From positions 672,001 through 736,000 of the forward strand of contig CAVYVF010000023.1 of the NCBI GenBank assembly GCA_963771885.1: DNA of 64,000 nucleotides, written 5' to 3'. Positions within the stretch are counted from its first letter, which is position 1, and each line of letters begins with the position of its first letter. The notes under the pieces are model-generated. The model was not told the origin of the DNA. It did no database searches and saw only the letters and a list, made by a program, of their open reading frames with translations. This DNA comes from Candidatus Bathyarchaeota archaeon (lineage in GTDB: Archaea > Thermoproteota > Bathyarchaeia > TCS64). Of the stretch, positions 39,806 to 49,006 are shown one piece after another. A program made the translations under genes and the position numbers.

Positions 39806-40498
39806 CTATTTCTTAAGGAGCGCCCTTGTGTACTCCTCGGTGAGCACTCTCATCCTCTCCGCCTGAGGCATCTCCGCCAGCTTGGCGAGCTCGCCGCGGC
39901 GCTTCTCCGCCATGATCTTCAACTCCTCGGGGTGCTCCCTCCACATCTGCTCCTCGAGCACACGCTTCACAACGATCTCAGTGAGCAGCGGGTCAGCTAT
40001 AGGACAACCTTCGAAGTTCTTCCCCTGCCCCATTGTGAGCAGCAGCTCGTTGACAGGGTAGCCGCGGCACGTACCTGGGCGGACGGGGTGTATGGCACAG
40101 AGGTTGCCCCTTAGGAAGGGGCAGGGCTGAGAGACGATGAACGTTCCGTCCCCCATGGGCACGGCATTTACCCTATCCTTCAGCTTCTTGTACTCCATGT
40201 GGAGGGTGTCAGCCACAGTCTGCAGTTCCTCCTTCTTCATCCTGATGCTACCCCTGCTCCTGCAGCAGTTGCCGCAGCGCTGGCAGAGCCTCTGCTGGAG
40301 CGCTATAATCATCGCGACCTCCGTCTCGAGTACGACGCCGAGGCTGCTGACCGCCTTGAGCACGTCCTCCTCCCTGACCGGGGGCATCTTGAGCCTCTTC
40401 TTAGCGAGATCGAGGACGCGAAAGGCGTGTGGGCCGGAGAATGGCTTGAAGTCGGGGCGCGCCAGGAGGCGGTCGAGGGGCGACTTCTCCTCGCTCAT
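39806..40498 (-). CDS. YkgJ-family CxxCxxCC cysteine-cluster protein
   Basis: CQRCGNCC, CPFL...C.IH..RP..CR.YP. Confidence 0.85.
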   Translation of the reverse strand: MSEEKSPLDRLLARPDFKPFSGPHAFRVLDLAKKRLKMPPVREEDVLKAVSSLGVVLETEVAMIIALQQRLCQRCGNCCRSRGSIRMKKEELQTVADTLHMEYKKLKDRVNAVPMGDGTFIVSQPCPFLRGNLCAIHPVRPGTCRGYPVNELLLTMGQGKNFEGCPIADPLLTEIVVKRVLEEQMWREHPEELKIMAEKRRGELAKLAEMPQAERMRVLTEEYTRALLKK

Positions 40499-40570
40499 GG
40501 TACGCCAATCAGCTCACGGGGTTATAACCCCATCCATGGCGCGTGTCGCCAGCTACACCTGCCCAAACCA

Positions 40571-40788
40571 TTTAAATAGAATATGGGGACCCAACACCGT
40601 AGTATCGAGAGAGGTGCAATAAATGCGCCAATTTACCGTAGCTTAAGCCGGAGCAGCGCTCCACACCTAGTTCTAACCACCCGGGTAGCATCCCCGGCGA
40701 TTCAAACCCCAAGCCAAGACGAGTTCAGCTTCTTCGGCTTCCAGGCCAAGGGCCTGTGCTGAAGGAGACCCCGGAGGCACAGGTCTTG
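40571..40788 (+). promoter_or_regulatory. aro operon promoter and structured 5' leader (candidate attenuator)
   Basis: TTTAAATA at 40571-40578; GAGGTG SD plus uORF MRQFTVA* at 40623-40646; Phe cluster at 40724-40741; hairpin 40747-40788 covering the aroF TTG. Confidence 0.5.
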
Positions 40789-41619
40789 TCAAAGCTAGTG
40801 ATATCTCAGAAGATCAGGCTCGCCGTCAAGAACGGGCACGGCGCCGTTAGAATCAGGGTCGGGGACGTAACAATCGGCGGTGACCAACTCACCGTCATGG
40901 CAGGGCCATGCAGCGTCGAGGGCAGGGAGCAGCTGCTCGAAGCGGCCCGCGCCGTAAAGGCGGCTGGTGGTCATATTCTCCGCGGCGGCGCATTCAAGCC
41001 CCGCACCCTCCCCTACAGCTTCCAGGGGCTTGGCGAGGAGGGACTCAAGATGCTCTCCGAGGCCCGCGACGAGACGGGGCTCCCAGTCATCACCGAGGTT
41101 ATGGCCCCTGAAGACGTGGAGCTAGTCGCATCCTACGCCGACATCCTCCAGATCGGGGCGCGCAACATGCAGAACTTCACCCTCCTCAAGACAGTGGGGA
41201 AGTCGGAGAGGCCCGTGATGCTTAAGAGAGGAATGTCTGCAACCGTTGAGGAGTGGCTTGGATGCGCCGAGTACATCCTCAACGAGGGCAACCCCAACGT
41301 CATCCTCTGCGAGCGAGGCATACGCACATACGAGACAATCACGAGGAACACCCTCGACGTCTCAGCGGTGCCCGTGATCAAGCAGCTCAGCGACCTACCC
41401 GTCGTTGTTGACCCATCCCACGGCACGGGGATCAGGAGCCTCGTCGCTCCGATGGCGAAGGCTGGCGTAGCCGCTGGGGCGGACGGCCTCATCATAGAAG
41501 TACACCCCCACCCCGAGAAGGCGCTCAGCGACGGCGACCAAAGCCTCCACCCCGAAGAGTTCGCAGACCTCATGCGCGAGATCGCCCCAATCGCGGGCGC
41601 AGTCGGGAAAAGGATGTAG
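40786..41619 (+). CDS. aroF: DAHP synthase type I-beta (catalytic domain only)
   Basis: [44 protein letters not shown] start after GGAGG. Confidence 0.95.
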
Positions 41620-41622
41620 CCC

Positions 41623-42706
41623 ATGAGCCTTGAGTCCATGAGGGCCGCCACGGTCCGCCTAGGCGGGAGGGACTACCCTGTCCTAGCTGGTGCAGAGCTT
41701 CTGGACCGGCTAGGAGAAGCGATCGCCGAGTACATCCCCGGCGCCACGGGGTGCGTGCTGGTCACCTCGCCCCAGGTCGACGCCCTCTACGGGGTGCGCG
41801 CCATGACTTCCCTCGAATCCCTACACCCGGGCAAGGTCACGATCCCCGAGGGAGAGGAGGCGAAGACATGGGACGCCACGGGTGAATTACTCGGGTCACT
41901 CATCAGGCAAGGTCTCGACCGAAAAGGCGTGGTTGTCGCTCTCGGTGGCGGCTCCGTAGGCGACTCCGCCGGCTTCGCCGCATCCCTCTATATGAGGGGA
42001 ATACGTGTCGTCCAAGTACCCACGACGCTCCTCGGGCAGGTTGACAGCGGCGTCGGCGGCAAGACCGCCGTCAACCACCCCGCCGGCAAGAACCTCATAG
42101 GCACATTCCACCAGCCCAGCCTCGTCGCCTGCGACACTGGGCTACTCTCAACACTCCCGAGGCGTGAGCTGCTCTCTGGCCTCGCCGAGGTCGTTAAATA
42201 CGGCGTCATCGCGGACGCCAAGCTCTACGTAGGCGTCGAGACAGAGGCGGAGAAGCTGCTCAGCGCCGACCCCCAGGCGCTGCGATGGGTCGTGGCGCGA
42301 TGCGTCGCGGCGAAAGCCCGCCTAGTCGAATCCGACGAGCGGGACGAAAAGGGCGTCAGAGCAGCGCTAAACTACGGGCACACCATGGGACACGCGGTCG
42401 AGACACTCTCGGGGTACTCGATCCGCCACGGCGAGGCGGTGGCGATCGGCATGGTCGCCGCTTCGCGGGTCGCCATCGCACTCGGGCTGCTCAAGAAGCC
42501 CGACCTCGAACGACAGCTCATACTCCTCGAGAGGCTCGAGCTGCCACACGGAGTCGCCCTACGGCGTCGACGAGGTAATTCCCCTCATGAGGCGGGATAA
42601 GAAGGCGGAGCGTGGCTCGATACGCCTCGTCCTCCCGACGGGGATCGGCGGAGAGCCTGCTATCAGCACCGTCTCTGAGGTGGAGATACGGGGGGCGCTC
42701 GCCTAG
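41623..42706 (+). CDS. aroB: 3-dehydroquinate synthase; frameshifted at ~42547
   Basis: GGG.VGD, PTTLL.QVDS.VGGKT, LNYGHT.GH; removing one base restores ...LMRRDKK...GALA* ending at 42706, abutting aroD. Confidence 0.93.
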
Positions 42707-43369
42707 ATGGTCAGGATATGTGGCTCTGTCGCCGCAAGAACCACGGGTGCAGCCGTCGAGACGATTCGGGGGCTCGCGAAACCCGACATGGTCGAGCTAC
42801 GCCTCGACTATGCCGAGGAGCGGTTAGACCTCGACAGACTTAGGGAATCAACAAGTACTATACTCGTCGCCACGGCGAGGCTGCCCTCTCAGGGCGGGCG
42901 TTGGGCGGGGGGCGAGGGCGAGCGACAGAGGCTGCTTCTCTCCGCTGCTAAGGCGGGCTTCGACTACGTCGACGTCGAGGACGACTCAAAACAGATCGAG
43001 ACGCTCGTCGAGAAGCTACACGCCTCACGCGCCAGGGTCGTGGTCTCGCGCCACCTCCTCGATAGGACGCCGTACCTCGAAGAGATACTCGAAATGCACG
43101 GCGTGGCGGAGGAGGCGGGTGCCGACGTCGTCAAGATCGTCGGGACGGCATCGTGCCCCGCGGACAACCTGCCGTGCCTCAGCTACCTAGCTCAGAAGCC
43201 CGGCAACGTCAGCTTCGCGATGGGTTCTCACGGCGTTCCCTCTCGCGTACTTTCGCCGCTCATGGGTGGCGCGTGGACATACGCCTCCGCGAGTGAGGTC
43301 GTCGCACCGGGGCAGATGACACTCGAATCGCTGAGGGAGGCGTACCGCCTCATGGGGGCTGAGCCTTGA
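42707..43369 (+). CDS. aroD: Type I 3-dehydroquinate dehydratase
   Basis: ELRLD, T.R...QGG, VSRH, DVVK, F.MG, SR, APGQ. Confidence 0.92.
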   Translation: MVRICGSVAARTTGAAVETIRGLAKPDMVELRLDYAEERLDLDRLRESTSTILVATARLPSQGGRWAGGEGERQRLLLSAAKAGFDYVDVEDDSKQIETLVEKLHASRARVVVSRHLLDRTPYLEEILEMHGVAEEAGADVVKIVGTASCPADNLPCLSYLAQKPGNVSFAMGSHGVPSRVLSPLMGGAWTYASASEVVAPGQMTLESLREAYRLMGAEP

Positions 43370-44202
43370 AACGCCTCTTCCTCCTTGGCTACCCCGTGGC
43401 CCACTCACTGAGCCCCGCGATGCAGAACGCCGCATTGAAGGCGCTGGGGCTTAACTACGAGTATGGTCTCATGCCCGTGCACCCTGGGGGACTCGCTACA
43501 CGCGTAGGAGAACTCCGTAGCACGTCTGCAGGCTTCAACGTTACCATCCCACACAAGGTCGCGGTCATCCCTCTCCTTGACTGCCTCGACGAGTCTGCGT
43601 CGGCCGTCGGCGCCGTCAACACGGTCGTAAACCACTACGGCCGCCTCACGGGGTACAATACGGATTGCACAGCCTCAACAAGAGCACTCCGCGAGCGTAA
43701 CGGTGACCTTGGCGGCTCCCGCGTCGTCGTCCTCGGCGCCGGCGGAGCGGCCCGAGCTGTCTCAATGGGGCTTGCGCGGCACGTGGAATGGATTAGGATA
43801 CTCGCTAGGGACGAGGCGAAGGCCCGTGCACTTGCTGACGAGGTTCGCGCCCGGACGGGGGCAAATGTCGAGGGCGGAGGCATCGAAGACGCGGCGGAGG
43901 TCACGCGTGCCGCGGATATCCTAGTCAACGCGACGCCCGTCGGCATGTCACCGAACATAGGCGCCAGCCCAGTGGCTCCCGAGGCGCTCCATGGGGGGCT
44001 CCTCGTCTTCGATCTCGTCTACAATCCCGAGAAGACCCAACTTCTCGCCGACGCCGAGAGGGCGGGGGCGCACATTATCGGGGGGTTGCCTATGCTCGTC
44101 TACCAGGGGGCGGAGGCGTTACGCCTCTGGACCGGGATGGAGGCGCCCGAGGCGCTCATGATGGAGGCGGCGAGGCGCGCCATCGGAGGTGCGGCGACTT
44201 GA
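43366..44202 (+). CDS. aroE: Shikimate dehydrogenase
   Basis: G.PV.HSLSP, NVTIPHK, GAVNT, NTD, GAGGAARA, DLVYNP. Confidence 0.95.
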   Translation: MKRLFLLGYPVAHSLSPAMQNAALKALGLNYEYGLMPVHPGGLATRVGELRSTSAGFNVTIPHKVAVIPLLDCLDESASAVGAVNTVVNHYGRLTGYNTDCTASTRALRERNGDLGGSRVVVLGAGGAARAVSMGLARHVEWIRILARDEAKARALADEVRARTGANVEGGGIEDAAEVTRAADILVNATPVGMSPNIGASPVAPEALHGGLLVFDLVYNPEKTQLLADAERAGAHIIGGLPMLVYQGAEALRLWTGMEAPEALMMEAARRAIGGAAT

Positions 44203-44708
44203 ACGTCGTAGTATTCGGATTCATGGGCGTCGGCAAGACCACAGTCGGCAGACTGCTCTCCCCGCGCCTCGGTTACAGGTTCGTAGACTCCGACGCCGAG
44301 GCAGAGAGAGAGGCGGGGATGAGGATCGCCGAGGTCTTCGCCGAGAGGGGGGAACCCGCCTTCCGCGAGATAGAGCGACGAGTCATAACACGGCTTAGCC
44401 AAGACGACAAACAGGTGGTAGCCATCGGAGGCGGCGCCGTCCTCGACCCACGCAACGTCGAAGAACTCCGTAAAAACGGAAAGATGGTGCTCCTCACGGC
44501 TAGCCCCGAGGAGATCGGGCTGAGGACACGCGGGGACATCTCGAGACCCCTCCTCGCAGGCGCCGACAAGCTGACATGCATCCGGACACTCCTCGACGAG
44601 AGGCGGGACCGTTACCTCGCCGCGGCGGACATGGTAGTGGACACGAATGGCGTGCCGCCGATACGCGTCGCCGAGGCGATACAAGCCAGGCTGGAGGCAC
44701 ATCTATGA
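44199..44708 (+). CDS. aroK: Shikimate kinase, bacterial P-loop type
   Basis: GFMGVGKTT, D.D, GE..FR..E, GGG, RPLL. Confidence 0.94.
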   Translation: MNVVVFGFMGVGKTTVGRLLSPRLGYRFVDSDAEAEREAGMRIAEVFAERGEPAFREIERRVITRLSQDDKQVVAIGGGAVLDPRNVEELRKNGKMVLLTASPEEIGLRTRGDISRPLLAGADKLTCIRTLLDERRDRYLAAADMVVDTNGVPPIRVAEAIQARLEAHL

Positions 44709-45964
44709 GTGTCAAGATACACCCCTCAACGGTGTCCGGCTCAGTCGCCGCCCCGCCCTCGAAGAGCATGACCCACCGCGCCTTCGTGCTCGCAGCGCTG
44801 GCTGATGGGAGGAGCATTATACGCAACCCGCTCACCGCCGACGACACCGAGGCCACCTCACGCGTGCTCGCGGGGCTCGGCGTGGAGACACACAGGGGCA
44901 GCGAGTGGGTTGTGGATGGTGGCCACCTCCACGCCCCCTCTGAAACACTTGACTGCGGCGAGTCCGGGACGACACTCCGCTTCATGGCGGCTGCCTGCGC
45001 CCTCGTCGACGGCAACTGTCAACTCGCCGGCGGCCCCTCACTCTCCTCGCGCCCCGTTGGTCCGTTGCTTGGCGCCCTCGAACAGATAGGCGTGCGCGGT
45101 GAAAGCCAAGGCGGATTGCCCCCAGTGACGATTAGGGGGACGGGGCACATCAGGGGAGGCGAAGCCCGGCTACCCGGAGACGTAAGCAGCCAGTTCGTCT
45201 CAGCGCTCCTAACCGTTGCCCCCCTCGCTGACGCCTCCGTGAAGATTACACTGACGACCCCGCTCGAGTCGCGCCCCTACGTGTCGATGACAGTGGACGC
45301 GATGCGCGCCTTCGGCGTCGAGGTTGAGCACACGCTGGACATGACGCGCCTGATGGCGCCTATAAGACCTTACAAGGCAACGACGGTCGTCGTCGAGGGG
45401 GACTGGTCGTCGGCATCCTACCCACTCGCAGCGGGAGCGATGGTTGGCGAAGCGAGGGTGACAGGGCTGAACCACGCGAGCTCGCAGGCCGACAAGGTGA
45501 TAATCACGATACTCGCGCAGATGGGCGTCGAAGTGAGAGCGCGCAGTGACTCAGTAACCGTAAGGTCGTCGAAGTTGAAGTGCATCGAGTCTGACCTCAG
45601 CGACTGCCCCGACCTATTCCCCGTCGTCTCCGCGCTCTGCGCCGCCTCCGAGGGTAAGAGCCGCCTCACAGGGCTCGGGCGGCTCCGGTTCAAGGAGTCG
45701 GACAGGGTCGCTGCGATGGCGGAGGGTCTCACGCGGATGGGTGCCAAGGTGAGCTACGATGCAGACTCAGCGACGATAATGGGCGGGAGGCTGCGTGGTG
45801 CAGAGGTCGACCCGTGGGGCGACCACAGGATAGCCATGTCCCTCGCCGTCCTTGCGCTGAGGGCGGAGGGAGAAACAATCATCAAAAACGCGGGGTGCGT
45901 CTCAAAGTCCTACCCGGGATTTTGGAGCGACCTCGCGGCACTGGGAGGAAGAGTAGAGCATTGA
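44705..45964 (+). CDS. aroA: EPSP synthase
   Basis: PPSKS.THR, GESGTTLRF, SSQF.S, KESDR, DHRIAM, KSYP. Confidence 0.96.
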   Translation: MSVKIHPSTVSGSVAAPPSKSMTHRAFVLAALADGRSIIRNPLTADDTEATSRVLAGLGVETHRGSEWVVDGGHLHAPSETLDCGESGTTLRFMAAACALVDGNCQLAGGPSLSSRPVGPLLGALEQIGVRGESQGGLPPVTIRGTGHIRGGEARLPGDVSSQFVSALLTVAPLADASVKITLTTPLESRPYVSMTVDAMRAFGVEVEHTLDMTRLMAPIRPYKATTVVVEGDWSSASYPLAAGAMVGEARVTGLNHASSQADKVIITILAQMGVEVRARSDSVTVRSSKLKCIESDLSDCPDLFPVVSALCAASEGKSRLTGLGRLRFKESDRVAAMAEGLTRMGAKVSYDADSATIMGGRLRGAEVDPWGDHRIAMSLAVLALRAEGETIIKNAGCVSKSYPGFWSDLAALGGRVEH

Positions 45965-47052
45965 GCAACAGCATTGGAACCGTTTTCAGGGTTACAAGCG
46001 TCGGTGAGAGCCACGGTAAGTGCGTAGGCACCGTCATAGACGGGTGCCCCGCAGGGCTCAAGCTGGATTACGACGCGCTCGACCGCGAGATGGCAAGGAG
46101 ACGCCCAGGCGCCAGCGCGGTCACCACAAGCAGGAACGAGGAGGACGCCGTCGAAGTGCTCTCCGGCGTACACGAGGGGCATACCACCGGGGCGCCAATT
46201 CTCATGCTCACATGGAACCGCGACATCGACTCATCCAAGTACGACGCCATCAGGGATACGCCACGGCCAGGTCACGCCGACTACGCGACACGCGCCCGTT
46301 ACGGCGGATTCGCCGACCACCGCGGGGGCGGTAGGGCATCCGGTAGGATAACCGCAGGATTCGTCATGGCGGGCGCTGTCGCTAAGCAGCTCATCGCCAC
46401 GATAGGTGTTGAGGTGCACTCATACACGCGCGCCATAGGAGGCGTTGAAGCAACCGGCCCACTTGACTGGAGGGGCGCCGCGGGGAGCATAGTCCGCTGC
46501 CCAGACACCGCCTCTTCCACCAGGATGGTCGAGGTCATCGAGGAAGCGAGTCGCGGCGGCGACAGCGTCGGTGGTGAGGTGGAGTGCGTCGCAACTGGGC
46601 TCCCCGCGGGCGTCGGGCAGCCCGTCTTCGACACCATCGAGGGCGACATCGCCAAGGCCCTCTTCGCTGTCCCAGCCGTCAAGGCAGTCGAGTTCGGCGC
46701 AGGGTCACGTCTAGCTGCCATGAGAGGGAGCGAGGCGAACGACCCTTATGTGGTCGAGGGCGGGCGAGTCAACACCGCATCGAATAACTCGGGCGGCGTG
46801 CTCGGGGGGGTCACTAGCGGCGCACCCGTCGTCGTGCGCGCCTACTTCAAACCGACTCCAAGCATACCGCGTCCCCAGAGAACCGTCGACCTCGCATTGG
46901 TAAGGGAGGCCGAGATACGCATAGCGGGACGCCACGACCCATGCGTTGTCCCACGCGCCGTCCCCGTCGTCGAGGCGATGGTAGCCATCGTGCTCGCCGA
47001 CCAAGCCCTGAGGAGGGGCATCATACCACAGGTTCTAGGTGAGGGAGTATGA
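45961..47052 (+). CDS. aroC: Chorismate synthase
   Basis: GESHG, RPGHAD, GGGRASGR.T, KPTPSI, GRHDPC. Confidence 0.96.
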   Translation: MSNSIGTVFRVTSVGESHGKCVGTVIDGCPAGLKLDYDALDREMARRRPGASAVTTSRNEEDAVEVLSGVHEGHTTGAPILMLTWNRDIDSSKYDAIRDTPRPGHADYATRARYGGFADHRGGGRASGRITAGFVMAGAVAKQLIATIGVEVHSYTRAIGGVEATGPLDWRGAAGSIVRCPDTASSTRMVEVIEEASRGGDSVGGEVECVATGLPAGVGQPVFDTIEGDIAKALFAVPAVKAVEFGAGSRLAAMRGSEANDPYVVEGGRVNTASNNSGGVLGGVTSGAPVVVRAYFKPTPSIPRPQRTVDLALVREAEIRIAGRHDPCVVPRAVPVVEAMVAIVLADQALRRGIIPQVLGEGV

Positions 47053-47321
47053 CGTACGAGGAAAAGATCGCACCCCACAGGAAAGAGATAGACCGGCTCA
47101 ACGCCGAGATAATCGACAGGCTCGCCAAGCGCGTCGAGGTCGCGAGGGCCATCGCAGAGGTGAAGAGGCGCCACGGGAGACCTGTTGTCGACGCAGCTCG
47201 CGAGCGCATAGTACTGGATCAGGCTAGGGCGAGAGCCGCTGAGAGGGGACTCGACCCCGATGGCGCCGAGCGCGTCTTCCGCGCCATTATCGACGTGTGC
47301 GTCGAGGCGGAGGAACATTGA
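47049..47321 (+). CDS. aroQ: Chorismate mutase (AroQ, monofunctional)
   Basis: R.EID.L...I...L..R, K, V.D..RE. Confidence 0.9.
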   Translation: MTYEEKIAPHRKEIDRLNAEIIDRLAKRVEVARAIAEVKRRHGRPVVDAARERIVLDQARARAAERGLDPDGAERVFRAIIDVCVEAEEH

Positions 47322-48130
47322 TGAGGATCGCCTATCAAGGCGTCCCCGGCGCCTACAGCGAGGCGGCTATAATCCAGCACTGGGGCTTATCCGCCGAGCC
47401 CGTTCCCAGGCCCTACTTGGAGGATATATTCTCTATCGTCGAGTCCGGGGAGGTCGACGCCGGGTTAGTCCCGGTCGAGAACACCCTTGAGGGCAGCATA
47501 ACCAGGACATACGACCTTCTTAACGAGCGTAGCCTCACGGTGCTCGGTGAAACCGTGTTCCGAGTAGTCCACTGCCTCATAGCGAACCCGGGGGTCAAAC
47601 CCGGAGACGTGAGGCGGGTCTACTCCCACCCCCAAGCCCTCGGGCAGGTGCGTGGCTACCTCGCCGCACACGGCTACGAGGCGGTCAACTACTATGACAC
47701 CGCCGGCGCCGTGAAGATGATCCGTGACGAGGGGCTGAGTGACGCCGCTGCAATAGCAAGCAGAAGTGCCGCCAAGATATACGGTGCGAACATCCTCGCC
47801 GAGGGCGTCGAGGATAAGAACGAGAACTATACCCGCTTCCTCCACGTGGGACGCGGCTCCACCGAGCCGACGGGGCGAGACAAGACGAGCCTCGCATTCA
47901 CCGTAGACCATAGACCAGGCACACTCATAGCCGCGCTGCGCGCCTTCGCCGACAGGGACCTCAACCTCACCAAGATAGAGTCGCGCCCCTACCCCGGGAG
48001 GCCATGGGAATACTTCTTCTTCATAGACTTCGAGGGGCACATCGGTGACTCAGTCAGCGAGGAGGCGCTCAGCGAACTGGCGGATTACGCGGGCAGTCTC
48101 AAGGTCCTCGGCTCCTACCCTCGCGCATAG
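47321..48130 (+). CDS. pheA: Prephenate dehydratase with ACT domain
   Basis: QG.PGAYSE, PVENTLEG, SHPQAL.Q, NYTRF, NLTKIESRP, LGSYP. Confidence 0.95.
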   Translation: MRIAYQGVPGAYSEAAIIQHWGLSAEPVPRPYLEDIFSIVESGEVDAGLVPVENTLEGSITRTYDLLNERSLTVLGETVFRVVHCLIANPGVKPGDVRRVYSHPQALGQVRGYLAAHGYEAVNYYDTAGAVKMIRDEGLSDAAAIASRSAAKIYGANILAEGVEDKNENYTRFLHVGRGSTEPTGRDKTSLAFTVDHRPGTLIAALRAFADRDLNLTKIESRPYPGRPWEYFFFIDFEGHIGDSVSEEALSELADYAGSLKVLGSYPRA

Positions 48131-48190
48131 GCAGCAGGGCCTGCCCTCAAGGCAGAAATATGCTCCATCAGGGATACAATCGGACACGTC

Positions 48191-49006
48191 TTGAAGGCTG
48201 CGGTCGTAGGCGCGAAGGGGGGCATGGGCGGCTGGCTAGTACACCACCTCGCAACCCTAGGCCACGAAGTCGCCGCGGTCGACACACGCACCGATCCACT
48301 CGAACAGCTCCACGGGTTCGACCTTGTCGTCGTGTCTGTGCCGATCAGCGCGACGCCCGGCGTCATCCGTGTTGTTGCCACGAAGATGAGGCGCGGCACG
48401 ATCCTTGCCGAGGTGGCCAGCCTCAAGGAAGAAAGCCACAAGGCACTCTCCATCGTGTCATGCTTAGGGCTCACGCCCCTCTGTATTCACCCCATATTCG
48501 GGCCATCGACGGATTCTCTCAGTGGTAGGGTGGTCGCGGTTGTCCCCGTTGTTGACGCCGAAGAGGAGGCAGGATTGGCCCGGTCGCTTTTCCCCGGCGC
48601 CGATGTCGTCACGCTCCCCGCGGCTCGCCACGACCGTTGCATGGCCGCCGTTCTCTCCCTCCCCTACGCTGTCAACCTCGCCCTCTCCCGCGTCCTCGGA
48701 GGCGAGGACCTAAAACTCGCATCACAGATGGCGGGCTCCACATTCGCAGTGCAGTACACGCTCGCCCAGAGCGTCGCGGGGGAGAGCCCCACACTTACAC
48801 GCGACCTACTTAGCTGTAACGCCTCGCTTGTGCCGCTTCTGAGGGCGTTCGAGGATGCCCTGGGGGATGTTGTCTGGGCGTCGGGTGACGATGCTCGGTT
48901 CTCCTCACTCCACACCGAGATCATAGATGTGCTATCCCGAGACCATTCCTTCGCGGGGGCGAATGGGCGCAGGCAGCGTGCCCATATGGCGGTCGCTGGT
49001 GCCTAG
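48191..49006 (+). CDS. tyrA: Prephenate dehydrogenase
   Basis: VG..GGMG, SVPI, EVASLK, IHPIFGP, HD..MA.V. Confidence 0.88.
   Translation: MKAAVVGAKGGMGGWLVHHLATLGHEVAAVDTRTDPLEQLHGFDLVVVSVPISATPGVIRVVATKMRRGTILAEVASLKEESHKALSIVSCLGLTPLCIHPIFGPSTDSLSGRVVAVVPVVDAEEEAGLARSLFPGADVVTLPAARHDRCMAAVLSLPYAVNLALSRVLGGEDLKLASQMAGSTFAVQYTLAQSVAGESPTLTRDLLSCNASLVPLLRAFEDALGDVVWASGDDARFSSLHTEIIDVLSRDHSFAGANGRRQRAHMAVAGA

Follow-up and report, generated by a model that had tools for sequence, protein, structure and literature searches.

A candidate frameshift switch ahead of an archaeal aromatic amino acid operon and at the start of Tar-family genes

How might an archaeal operon for aromatic amino acid biosynthesis register that one of its end products is in short supply? 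The question is raised by the leader of an aro operon in a genome of Candidatus Bathyarchaeota (contig CAVYVF010000023.1), of which a stretch of 64,000 nucleotides, referred to here as the window, was analysed. A preliminary description of this DNA had proposed a translated, Phe-sensing leader in which a ribosome stalled on a cluster of Phe codons frees the ribosome-binding site (RBS) of the first gene, aroF. The features on which that proposal was built, i.e., a 59-codon open reading frame (ORF), two hairpin arms, a GGAGG motif and a TTG start codon, are all present at the positions given for them. Of the proposal itself, control of a hairpin-sequestered aroF start by a translated, Phe-sensing leader is supported, whereas stalling on the Phe cluster as the switch is not; judged from sequence comparison, the likely sensor is a single Phe codon (40632–40634) at a conserved site where the reading frame appears to change. 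The element would then be a regulatory frameshifting variant, more unusual than originally proposed.

Downstream of aroF, the operon covers the Phe and Tyr branches of the pathway, and the region of interest has the following layout:

40521–40528, − strand: likely TATA box of a divergent CxxCxxCC gene, GTTATAAC (from its position and relatives' sequences; PF03692)
40571–40578, + strand: TATA box of the aro operon promoter, TTTAAATA
40786–41619, + strand: aroF, DAHP synthase, first gene of the operon (PF00793, E = 1e-85; TTG start at 40786)
41623–49006, + strand: aroB, aroD, aroE, aroK, aroA, aroC, prephenate dehydratase and prephenate dehydrogenase (a Pfam match for each, and ORF positions)

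A TTAAATA element is located 49–53 nt upstream of the conserved leader ATG in 11 of 11 motif-bearing loci, and with the usual archaeal spacing between TATA box and start, transcription of the aro operon is placed near 40601. A forward promoter at the palindromic GTTATAAC at 40521, which had been considered as an alternative, finds no support; the palindrome is not kept in relatives and suits the position of the TATA box of the divergent gene (39806–40498), which it probably represents. Two places inside the operon are irregular. At 42550–42707, aroB falls short of the Pfam C-terminal model (positions 1–125 of 144), has an odd tail and is followed by a 100-nt gap before aroD, possibly reflecting a single-base assembly error. 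The approximately 270 nt between aroC and the prephenate dehydratase gene (47052–47320) contain no + strand ORF of 100 amino acids, and may harbour a small chorismate mutase.

Two overlapping frames in the aroF leader

The 59-codon ORF (40583–40762) is as previously described, with Phe codons at 40724, 40730, 40733 and 40739. Its ATG at 40583 is not the leader start, since it is not conserved in near-identical strains (ATA in the 98% identical L002, and G40585A in contigs of DNA runs X1 and X2) and is positioned only 4 nt past the TATA box. The likely start is ATG 40623, which is preceded by a Shine–Dalgarno (SD) sequence, belongs to the conserved core of the leader and occupies the same place in relatives. 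The core consists of the TATA box, GGTG, six bases, ATG CGC CAA TTT (40623–40634), and then an early stop:

40611–40616, + strand: SD sequence of the mini-ORF, GAGGTG (GGTG invariant in 22 of 22 aligned leaders; 12 nt upstream of CAA), possibly doubling as a −1 frameshift stimulator
40623–40646, + strand: zero-frame mini-ORF MRQFTVA*, with which translation of the leader most likely begins (SD-led ATG 40623; stop at 40644)
40628–40634, + strand: frame-change site C-CAA-UUU, read Gln-Phe in the zero frame and CCA-AUU in the −1 frame, the proposed Phe sensor (from sequence comparison)
40631–40762, + strand: −1 frame leader ORF of 43 codons, ATT to TGA 40760 (open in 40 of 41 leaders)

In a first search of relatives, 11 of 16 aroF loci had the same leader, one was cut by a contig end and four had other upstream sequence. 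Subsequently used were 41 distinct aroF leaders gathered from genomes and metagenomes; these were chosen by the presence of the start motif, which makes the motif count circular, but not the tests for an open frame and for phase. In all 41 leaders the zero frame stops 0–9 codons past the Phe codon. In 40 of the 41, no stop interrupts the −1 frame until 30 nt or less from the aroF start, compared with 7.2 expected from base shuffles, and the same test gives 0/41 for frame 0 and 6/41 for frame +1. For the genus of the window, 22 leaders were aligned (3 of 25 were omitted as too divergent), and here the distance from ATG to stop takes eight values from 134 to 170 nt, all of them 2 modulo 3, in 20 of the 22. 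By comparison, the sequence 3′ of the −1 frame stop has lengths in any phase. The frame is broken by a one-base difference in two leaders (L040 and L041), the latter of which has a near-identical sister locus with an intact frame (L116).

The preliminary description had allowed for an assembly indel that would join ATG 40623 to the Phe-rich frame. This is contradicted both by the recurrence of the one-base offset in 20 of the 22 aligned leaders and by the contigs of both independent DNA runs, which have no indel. Among contigs of the RNA runs, one spans 40696–41076 and none the frame-change site farther 5′.

The −1 frame stops fall into two classes. In 23 leaders the stop is located 24–30 nt upstream of aroF and directly 3′ of the 5′ arm of the hairpin that covers the RBS, whereas 16 leaders from a second genus have it overlapping the aroF start or just ahead of it. 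The two arrangements look like two solutions to translational coupling with aroF.

Some other devices were considered for the leader and rejected. A T-box or other Rfam riboswitch gave no covariance model match (best E-value 2.9 in an Rfam scan of the leader, which folds slightly better than its shuffles, z −1.65). For a bulge-helix-bulge intron that would excise the zero-frame stop, no conserved pairing was seen by eye in the alignment, nor was a conserved landing codon seen by eye in the leaders for a forward hop to a matched CAA. As for an unusual tRNA as the cause of a shift, ARAGORN returned ordinary tRNA-Gln(UUG) and tRNA-Phe (among 36 genes, an incomplete set).

The Phe-codon cluster and the hairpin at the aroF start

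Two elements at the 3′ end of the leader were central to the original proposal:

40724–40741, + strand: Phe-codon cluster (conserved in this genus only; in helix 4, which is 83% paired with no two-sided change)
40747–40788, + strand: hairpin hiding the aroF SD (40773–40777) and start codon (arms 40747–40759 and 40777–40788; TGA 40760–40762 directly after the 5′ arm)

Both are borne out by the alignments. In the 23 leaders of the type found in this genus, TTY accounts for 69 of the 299 codons close to the stop, compared with 22/299 and 15/299 in the other two frames and 7/758 farther upstream, and a Phe codon is found 7 codons ahead of the stop in 19 of the 23. Pairing in the hairpin core (40753–40759 with 40777–40783) is kept at 97% across 22 leaders, and two of the seven pairs have changed on both sides, G-C to A-U in three and U-A to C-G in four of the 22 sequences; two further leaders with unrelated 3′ ends were omitted from this alignment. 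A competing hairpin that had been proposed at 40742–40756 is missing from most of the aligned relatives.

The postulated coupling between the two elements fared less well. In folding models (37 °C, fixed ribosome footprint), a ribosome stalled 12 to 7 codons before the stop leaves the median cost of opening the RBS at 11.1–11.9 kcal/mol, compared with 12.1 kcal/mol for the free RNA, whereas a ribosome placed at the stop lowers it to 6.4 kcal/mol, i.e., a partial opening. In two leaders (L037 and L042) the modelled opening is negligible. Furthermore, the 16 leaders of the second genus, which carry the same upstream site, contain only five Phe codons in 800. Since the cluster is absent in the second genus and modelled stalls on it leave the RBS shut, it is not the primary switch. 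A role as a second checkpoint after the shift is conceivable, albeit doubtful, and the cluster may alternatively serve as the U-rich strand of a stem or as a U-rich termination tract. In one genome, an AT-rich leader (L011/L037) has a −1 frame that ends in a long T tract, which could constitute an oligo-U terminator that is passed only when translated.

The same site in a probable winged-helix gene family and in Thermococcus tar

The site is not confined to aroF leaders. With one mismatch allowed, the start pattern occurs as a single copy in 41 of 70 genomes of the family and in 5 of 330 others, with no control match in the family; the five outside matches had no aro or winged-helix (wHTH) context by eye and were dropped. 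Of the pattern matches in metagenomes, 120 in number, most are due to chance, and 24 of the 133 pattern loci examined are linked to aroF. Many members have a conserved gene of 354–376 codons as their −1 frame; it encodes an N-terminal domain of about 105 residues joined to the transketolase N-terminal subunit, and at the 15 loci checked the first in-frame Met is located 51–126 codons into this gene. The out-of-frame start codon varies between ATG, GTG and TTG at one place. Stand-alone copies of the domain begin alike, as do homologs in other classes of the phylum. A structure model of the domain (pLDDT 82) has wHTH topology, with archaeal wHTH clusters as Atlas neighbours at 0.93; the best PDB matches are wHTH regulators, none reaching E 0.001, and no Pfam match is above cut-off.

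A protein search with a threshold of at least 50 bits yielded 66 distinct wHTH loci, which are kin, so that the counts given here overstate their independence. CCA-ATW-Y is present in the gene frame at 65 of the 66, compared with 52 of 1556 Pro-Ile pairs (3.3%) in this genome, and the remaining locus has the site and a later indel. The −1 codon is ATT in 26 and ATA in 39 of the 65, and never ATC, though ATC accounts for 53% of the Ile codons here; hence CAA is always followed, in the zero frame, by a codon for Phe (26) or Tyr (39). The start frame reads NNC-CAA with an invariant C before CAA (65/65), and all 65 loci have, 2–4 codons upstream in this other frame, an SD-led ATG, GTG, TTG or ATT (using a permissive SD pattern). 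By contrast, an SD-led in-frame start is found at only three of the 65, and any in-frame ATG, GTG or TTG within 15 codons at 20. The SD signal shifts together with the out-of-frame start across the family (energies calculated with an assumed anti-SD motif, the 16S rRNA end not being found in the assembly), and its distance to CAA is 9–13 nt at 33 loci and 15–17 nt at the 32 where the start is 4 codons upstream. At L053, L326 and L328, in-frame stops right before the site exclude entry from upstream.

Eight of the 66 loci carry Phe and Tyr sites in tandem. Genes downstream of the family's sites include aro operons and, behind a Tyr site at L329, a beta-eliminating lyase, and many stand-alone paralogs neighbour genes without an obvious aromatic connection (HerA-like ATPase, sensor kinase, amidinotransferase-like). 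At L285 (G118), a wHTH gene with duplicated Tyr and Phe modules heads an operon for the alternative archaeal shikimate entry (aldolase, DHQ synthase II, aroD), and its stop overlaps the start of the next gene. Two stand-alone wHTH paralogs in the genome of the window (C23:538113 and C2:453851) are intact and begin at the out-of-frame start described, one with a Tyr and one with a Phe site; there is also a third, weaker profile match at C7:130903. In G066 (L053/L205), the start codon by the site is lost (AGG) and an in-frame ATG is located 10 codons upstream; the distance from GGTG to CAA is kept, and a perfect Tar box precedes the promoter.

The last observation leads to Tar (TK0271) of Thermococcus kodakarensis, described as the first gene and the activator of the aro operon (PMC6737238). 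Profile A1 of the family matches Thermococcales proteins, among them P0129 of Pyrococcus kukulkanii at 3e-25, and the Thermococcales protein P0310 is 42% identical to L200 (E 2e-19); the TK0271 reverse primer encodes the residues at the C terminus of P0310. Compared through these relatives of TK0271, the site-bearing genes are homologs of the Thermococcales Tar proteins. Primers published for the gene reveal a similar 5′ end (PMC6737238). The reverse complement of PTK0271_R contains CGC CAA TGG, where the −1 codon is the annotated ATG, and in TK0271_F, CAA TA comes two codons after an out-of-frame ATG. In over-long Thermococcales gene calls, three modules in tandem (GDVPPI, GDVPPM, GDAPPI), read in the frame of the gene, are found in at least 7 of the 47 sequences listed, and judging from the protein calls alone, the first of the three modules is presumably a Phe module. 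The primary start site of T. kodakarensis tar has been mapped 58 nt upstream of the annotated ATG (PMC4247193). This stretch could hold an additional module; alternatively or in addition, that start site may carry a leaderless in-frame GTG. Homologs of tar were not found in plasmids or viral contigs.

These similarities bear on a question stated as unanswered by the authors of the Tar study, namely how the lack of a single aromatic amino acid is sensed (PMC6737238). All three operons of T. kodakarensis are induced when any single one of Trp, Tyr and Phe is missing; binding of Tar is unaffected by Trp, Tyr or Phe, and erythrose 4-phosphate causes release in vitro (PMC6737238). Like the genes described here, Tar is of the wHTH family, takes first place in an aro operon and has an out-of-frame CGC-CAA-aromatic codon 5′ end, but in that report it is treated as an ordinary in-frame gene (PMC6737238). 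Tar-like boxes are also found at the matching promoter position in some of the aroF leaders, including that of the window:

40546–40565, + strand: degenerate Tar-type operator of two hexamers with an 8-nt spacer, ending 5 nt upstream of the TATA box

Relative to the published Tar consensus TGGACA-N8-TGTCCA (PMC6737238), the window's copy has three mismatches, L039 has two and L205 none. Of 39 leaders, 16 have their best match at −74 to −78 relative to the start codon, and in 34 the best match has at least four mismatches, so the element at 40546–40565 is at best a weak candidate for an activator site. Given its position 5 nt from the TATA box, the intact wHTH paralogs, themselves gated, may act on operon transcription through it and thus add a transcriptional layer.

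Unlike the Tar operon, the operon in the window has no wHTH and transketolase genes at its head, and only a cis-acting frame of 43 codons is left, which encodes no intact wHTH activator (no profile match). At the DNA level, likeness to the 5′ ends of wHTH-transketolase genes reaches z > 3 in 11 of the 41 leaders and z 2.1 in that of the window, and the window's leader peptide has no detectable likeness to the wHTH profile. As a group, the aroF leaders are likely to be decayed 5′ ends of Tar-family genes. The leader in the window may be such a decayed end in which only the cis switch was kept, with less certainty than for the group given the z of 2.1 and the lack of a match at the protein level. 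The leader of the window indicates that the frame change is under selection even where no protein product is at stake.

A proposed switch, its alternatives and related systems

We consider it likely that the site mediates a codon-sensing change of frame of some kind. The specific mechanism that we favour, with somewhat less assurance, is a −1 slip triggered by shortage of Phe, by which the ribosome would reach TGA 40760 and open the aroF initiation site. With Phe-tRNA plentiful, UUU would be decoded and the ribosome would stop at 40644, leaving the rest of the leader untranslated and the hairpin shut, and the naked leader RNA would possibly be ended by polarity. With Phe-tRNA scarce, the A site would wait at UUU and the peptidyl-tRNA(Gln) could slip from CAA to CCA, keeping two of three pairs and perhaps being pulled by the still-paired SD 12 nt upstream. 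Ile-tRNA would then read AUU and the ribosome would proceed to TGA 40760, where it would melt the hairpin, allowing aroF to be initiated or re-initiated, and shield the RNA from polarity. Elsewhere, the same site would gate the regulator gene itself, with a Phe, Tyr or Trp codon in the sensing position. A shift after decoding of the aromatic codon is disfavoured, since UAY cannot re-pair at AUA, as is a shift before CAA, which would not forbid ATC.

The individual steps have precedents. Slippage in the P site at hungry codons is an established mechanism (PMC8211752), an SD spaced 9–14 nt away stimulates −1 shifts in bacteria (PMC5009743), and translational coupling by unfolding or re-initiation as well as FttA-linked polarity have been described in archaea (PMC12548453). 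The junction itself is constrained at the codon level where the two frames overlap, as seen in the 65 of 66 wHTH loci and in the phase-keeping indels of the leaders. Points that count against a −1 slip are that the SD is 15–17 nt away at 32 of the 65 loci, outside the stimulatory range, that 20 of the 65 offer some in-frame ATG, GTG or TTG within 15 codons, and that the −1 codon of the Thermococcus Trp site is AUG, the annotated start, which fits re-initiation equally well. Moreover, C-CAA-UWY is not an X-XXY-YYZ slippery heptamer, and re-pairing from CAA to CCA involves a central mismatch; the shift site would thus be outside the slippery-heptamer rule. A small 3′ hairpin (helix 2) is present in this genus only. 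Avoidance of the heptamer inside ordinary genes of this genome was not found (Phe version 33 observed and 41.0 expected, Tyr version 53 and 44.9), which suggests that it is shifty only in its start-proximal context.

The main alternative is that a ribosome initiating at 40623 is held up at the hungry Phe codon and loses its short peptidyl-tRNA, after which translation is re-initiated at the overlapping AU-N of the −1 frame (AUU, AUA, or AUG at Trp sites). Sensor and output would be unchanged, and only the chemistry would differ. The −1 codon is indeed always AU-N (ATT 26 and ATA 39 of 65), the AUG at the Thermococcus Trp module is an annotated and functional Tar start, a good slippery heptamer is absent, and the site is always 2–4 codons past the start, a region where peptidyl-tRNA drop-off is frequent. 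On the other hand, AUA and AUU are poor start codons, the SD spacing suits the zero-frame start and not AU-N, and a restart, unlike re-pairing, gives no reason for the invariant C ahead of CAA. We regard this as an unlikely course of events.

A second alternative dispenses with amino acid sensing: recoding at a fixed ratio, or weak initiation at a non-AUG codon, would serve only to hold expression at a low level. Many stand-alone paralogs are located beside genes with no clear link to aromatic amino acids, and Tar could be controlled by erythrose 4-phosphate, as in vitro (PMC6737238). This reading is very unlikely, as a fixed-ratio device needs neither the restriction of the zero-frame codon to Phe, Tyr or Trp nor the tandem arrangement of such codons.

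Marginally less credible still is a motif that acts in the DNA or the transcript (a protein site, a small hairpin over the SD, or realignment of RNA polymerase that adds a base), with the open frame as a leftover of a decaying gene. In this genus, GGTGY-7nt-GCRCC forms a 5-bp hairpin or imperfect palindrome that is 100% paired, albeit invariant, and the likeness of 11 of the 41 leaders to the regulator's 5′ end would suit a leftover. Yet a homopolymer run for slippage is absent, and the palindrome is missing in most stand-alone paralogs, where CAA-TWY is retained. Intact genes of 354–376 codons require a change of frame in any case, and the leader peptides have diverged beyond recognition while remaining open and in phase, unlike a leftover. 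The original model, in which a leader from 40583 (or one joined by an indel) stalls at 40724–40741 and frees the aroF RBS, has in its favour the frame-specific, genus-wide conservation of the cluster and a covarying hairpin, but is highly improbable with a start that is not conserved, no indel, a modelled stall that leaves the RBS shut, and 16 leaders that share the upstream site but lack the cluster.

The −1 slip at a hungry aromatic codon has counterparts, each of them partial, among known systems. In ketolide-dependent frameshifting at ermCL/ermC, a change of frame in the leader sends ribosomes into the spacer, unfolds the structure and frees the next start (PMC5009743), much as envisaged here. 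The trigger in that case is an antibiotic on the bacterial ribosome (PMC5009743), whereas at this archaeal biosynthetic operon the absence of an aminoacyl-tRNA seems to take that part. In prfB (RF2) and antizyme, an empty A site near the gene start sets the frame and a 5′ SD may stimulate (PMC5009743, PMC8211752), and in an IS element a single SD serves both initiation and stimulation (PMC5009743). Those shifts are +1 at stop codons with good re-pairing (PMC5009743, PMC8211752), unlike the proposed −1 shift at a sense codon that is matched to the pathway. Shifting at hungry codons as such has been described as starvation-induced, with unclear natural use (PMC5009743).

As in pheL/trpL and in cat/erm attenuation, a cognate codon in the leader would read tRNA charging, and the output would pass through the RNA structure at the first gene. 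Unlike in pheL/trpL, there is one codon and not a run, and switching would consist in moving to another frame: a conserved start is lacking for the frame that holds the Phe run, and the conserved start opens a frame with a single Phe. Nor is there a sign of mutually exclusive structures between which a stall on the run would toggle, the competing hairpin not being conserved and modelled stalls leaving the RBS closed, and a conserved terminator/antiterminator pair was not found in the leaders. The conserved hairpin over the downstream SD is shared with cat/erm. Frameshifting in pheL has been reported as incidental (PMC3082878, PMC5009743). The closest archaeal case is fucA1 of Saccharolobus solfataricus, which also involves −1 frameshifting on an archaeal ribosome and was given in a 2021 review as the only one reported (PMC8211752); predicted archaeal cases besides fucA1 are viral and magnesium chelatase genes (PMC5009743). 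In contrast to the site described here, fucA1 combines an A-rich slippery heptamer and a stem-loop, is limited to particular strains and responds to no signal known so far; the review gives no purpose for its shift (PMC8211752). Overall, the element joins an ermCL-like output and a prfB/antizyme-like logic with attenuator-like sensing, and is neither a classical attenuator nor a canonical slippery heptamer. Such a site may have been overlooked, as GeneTack misses shifts within 50 nt of the start (PMC3711429).

Taken more broadly, the data suggest, at slightly better than even chance in our estimate, that at least two archaeal phyla sense aromatic amino acids by a modular frameshift switch that starts tar-family genes. 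Each module of CAA with a Phe, Tyr or Trp codon would be an independent sensor, a tandem would act as an OR gate, and the switch could outlive its gene as a cis leader. If so, this would be an archaeal counterpart of attenuation, the first regulatory frameshift in archaea, and a productive use of hungry-codon slippage in the feedback control of biosynthesis; in the literature, with poor coverage of subscription journals, no description of an archaeal ribosome-based amino acid sensor or regulatory frameshift was found. It would also explain how T. kodakarensis detects any one of three missing amino acids, and imply that start codons are mis-annotated throughout a regulator family. For sensing in that genetically tractable organism, the element offers a specific and testable answer.

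More distant wHTH genes display variations at the corresponding position. In a branch ahead of a sodium:solute symporter (L333–L341, L343–L345 and L347–L353; f44 and f65), a GTG or TTG that is preceded by an SD and set in the other frame leads to GGT-GTY-NNN-CTT-TTC at all 19 loci, commonly with a second CGT-TAY module and with an in-frame GTG also present. This resembles the +1 site of prfB, here with a Phe codon and an internal SD, and the branch may have evolved a +1 version of the same sensing logic. In f71 and f75 (L330, L331, L342 and L332), an SD-led ORF of four codons ends in TTG and a stop, with the wHTH body in the −1 frame; this is possibly a Leu-type site, though the neighbours are not leucine genes. 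Finally, a weaker wHTH homolog in G203 (L346) is located between LeuA-type and acetolactate synthase-type genes, a context that suggests related regulators for branched-chain operons.
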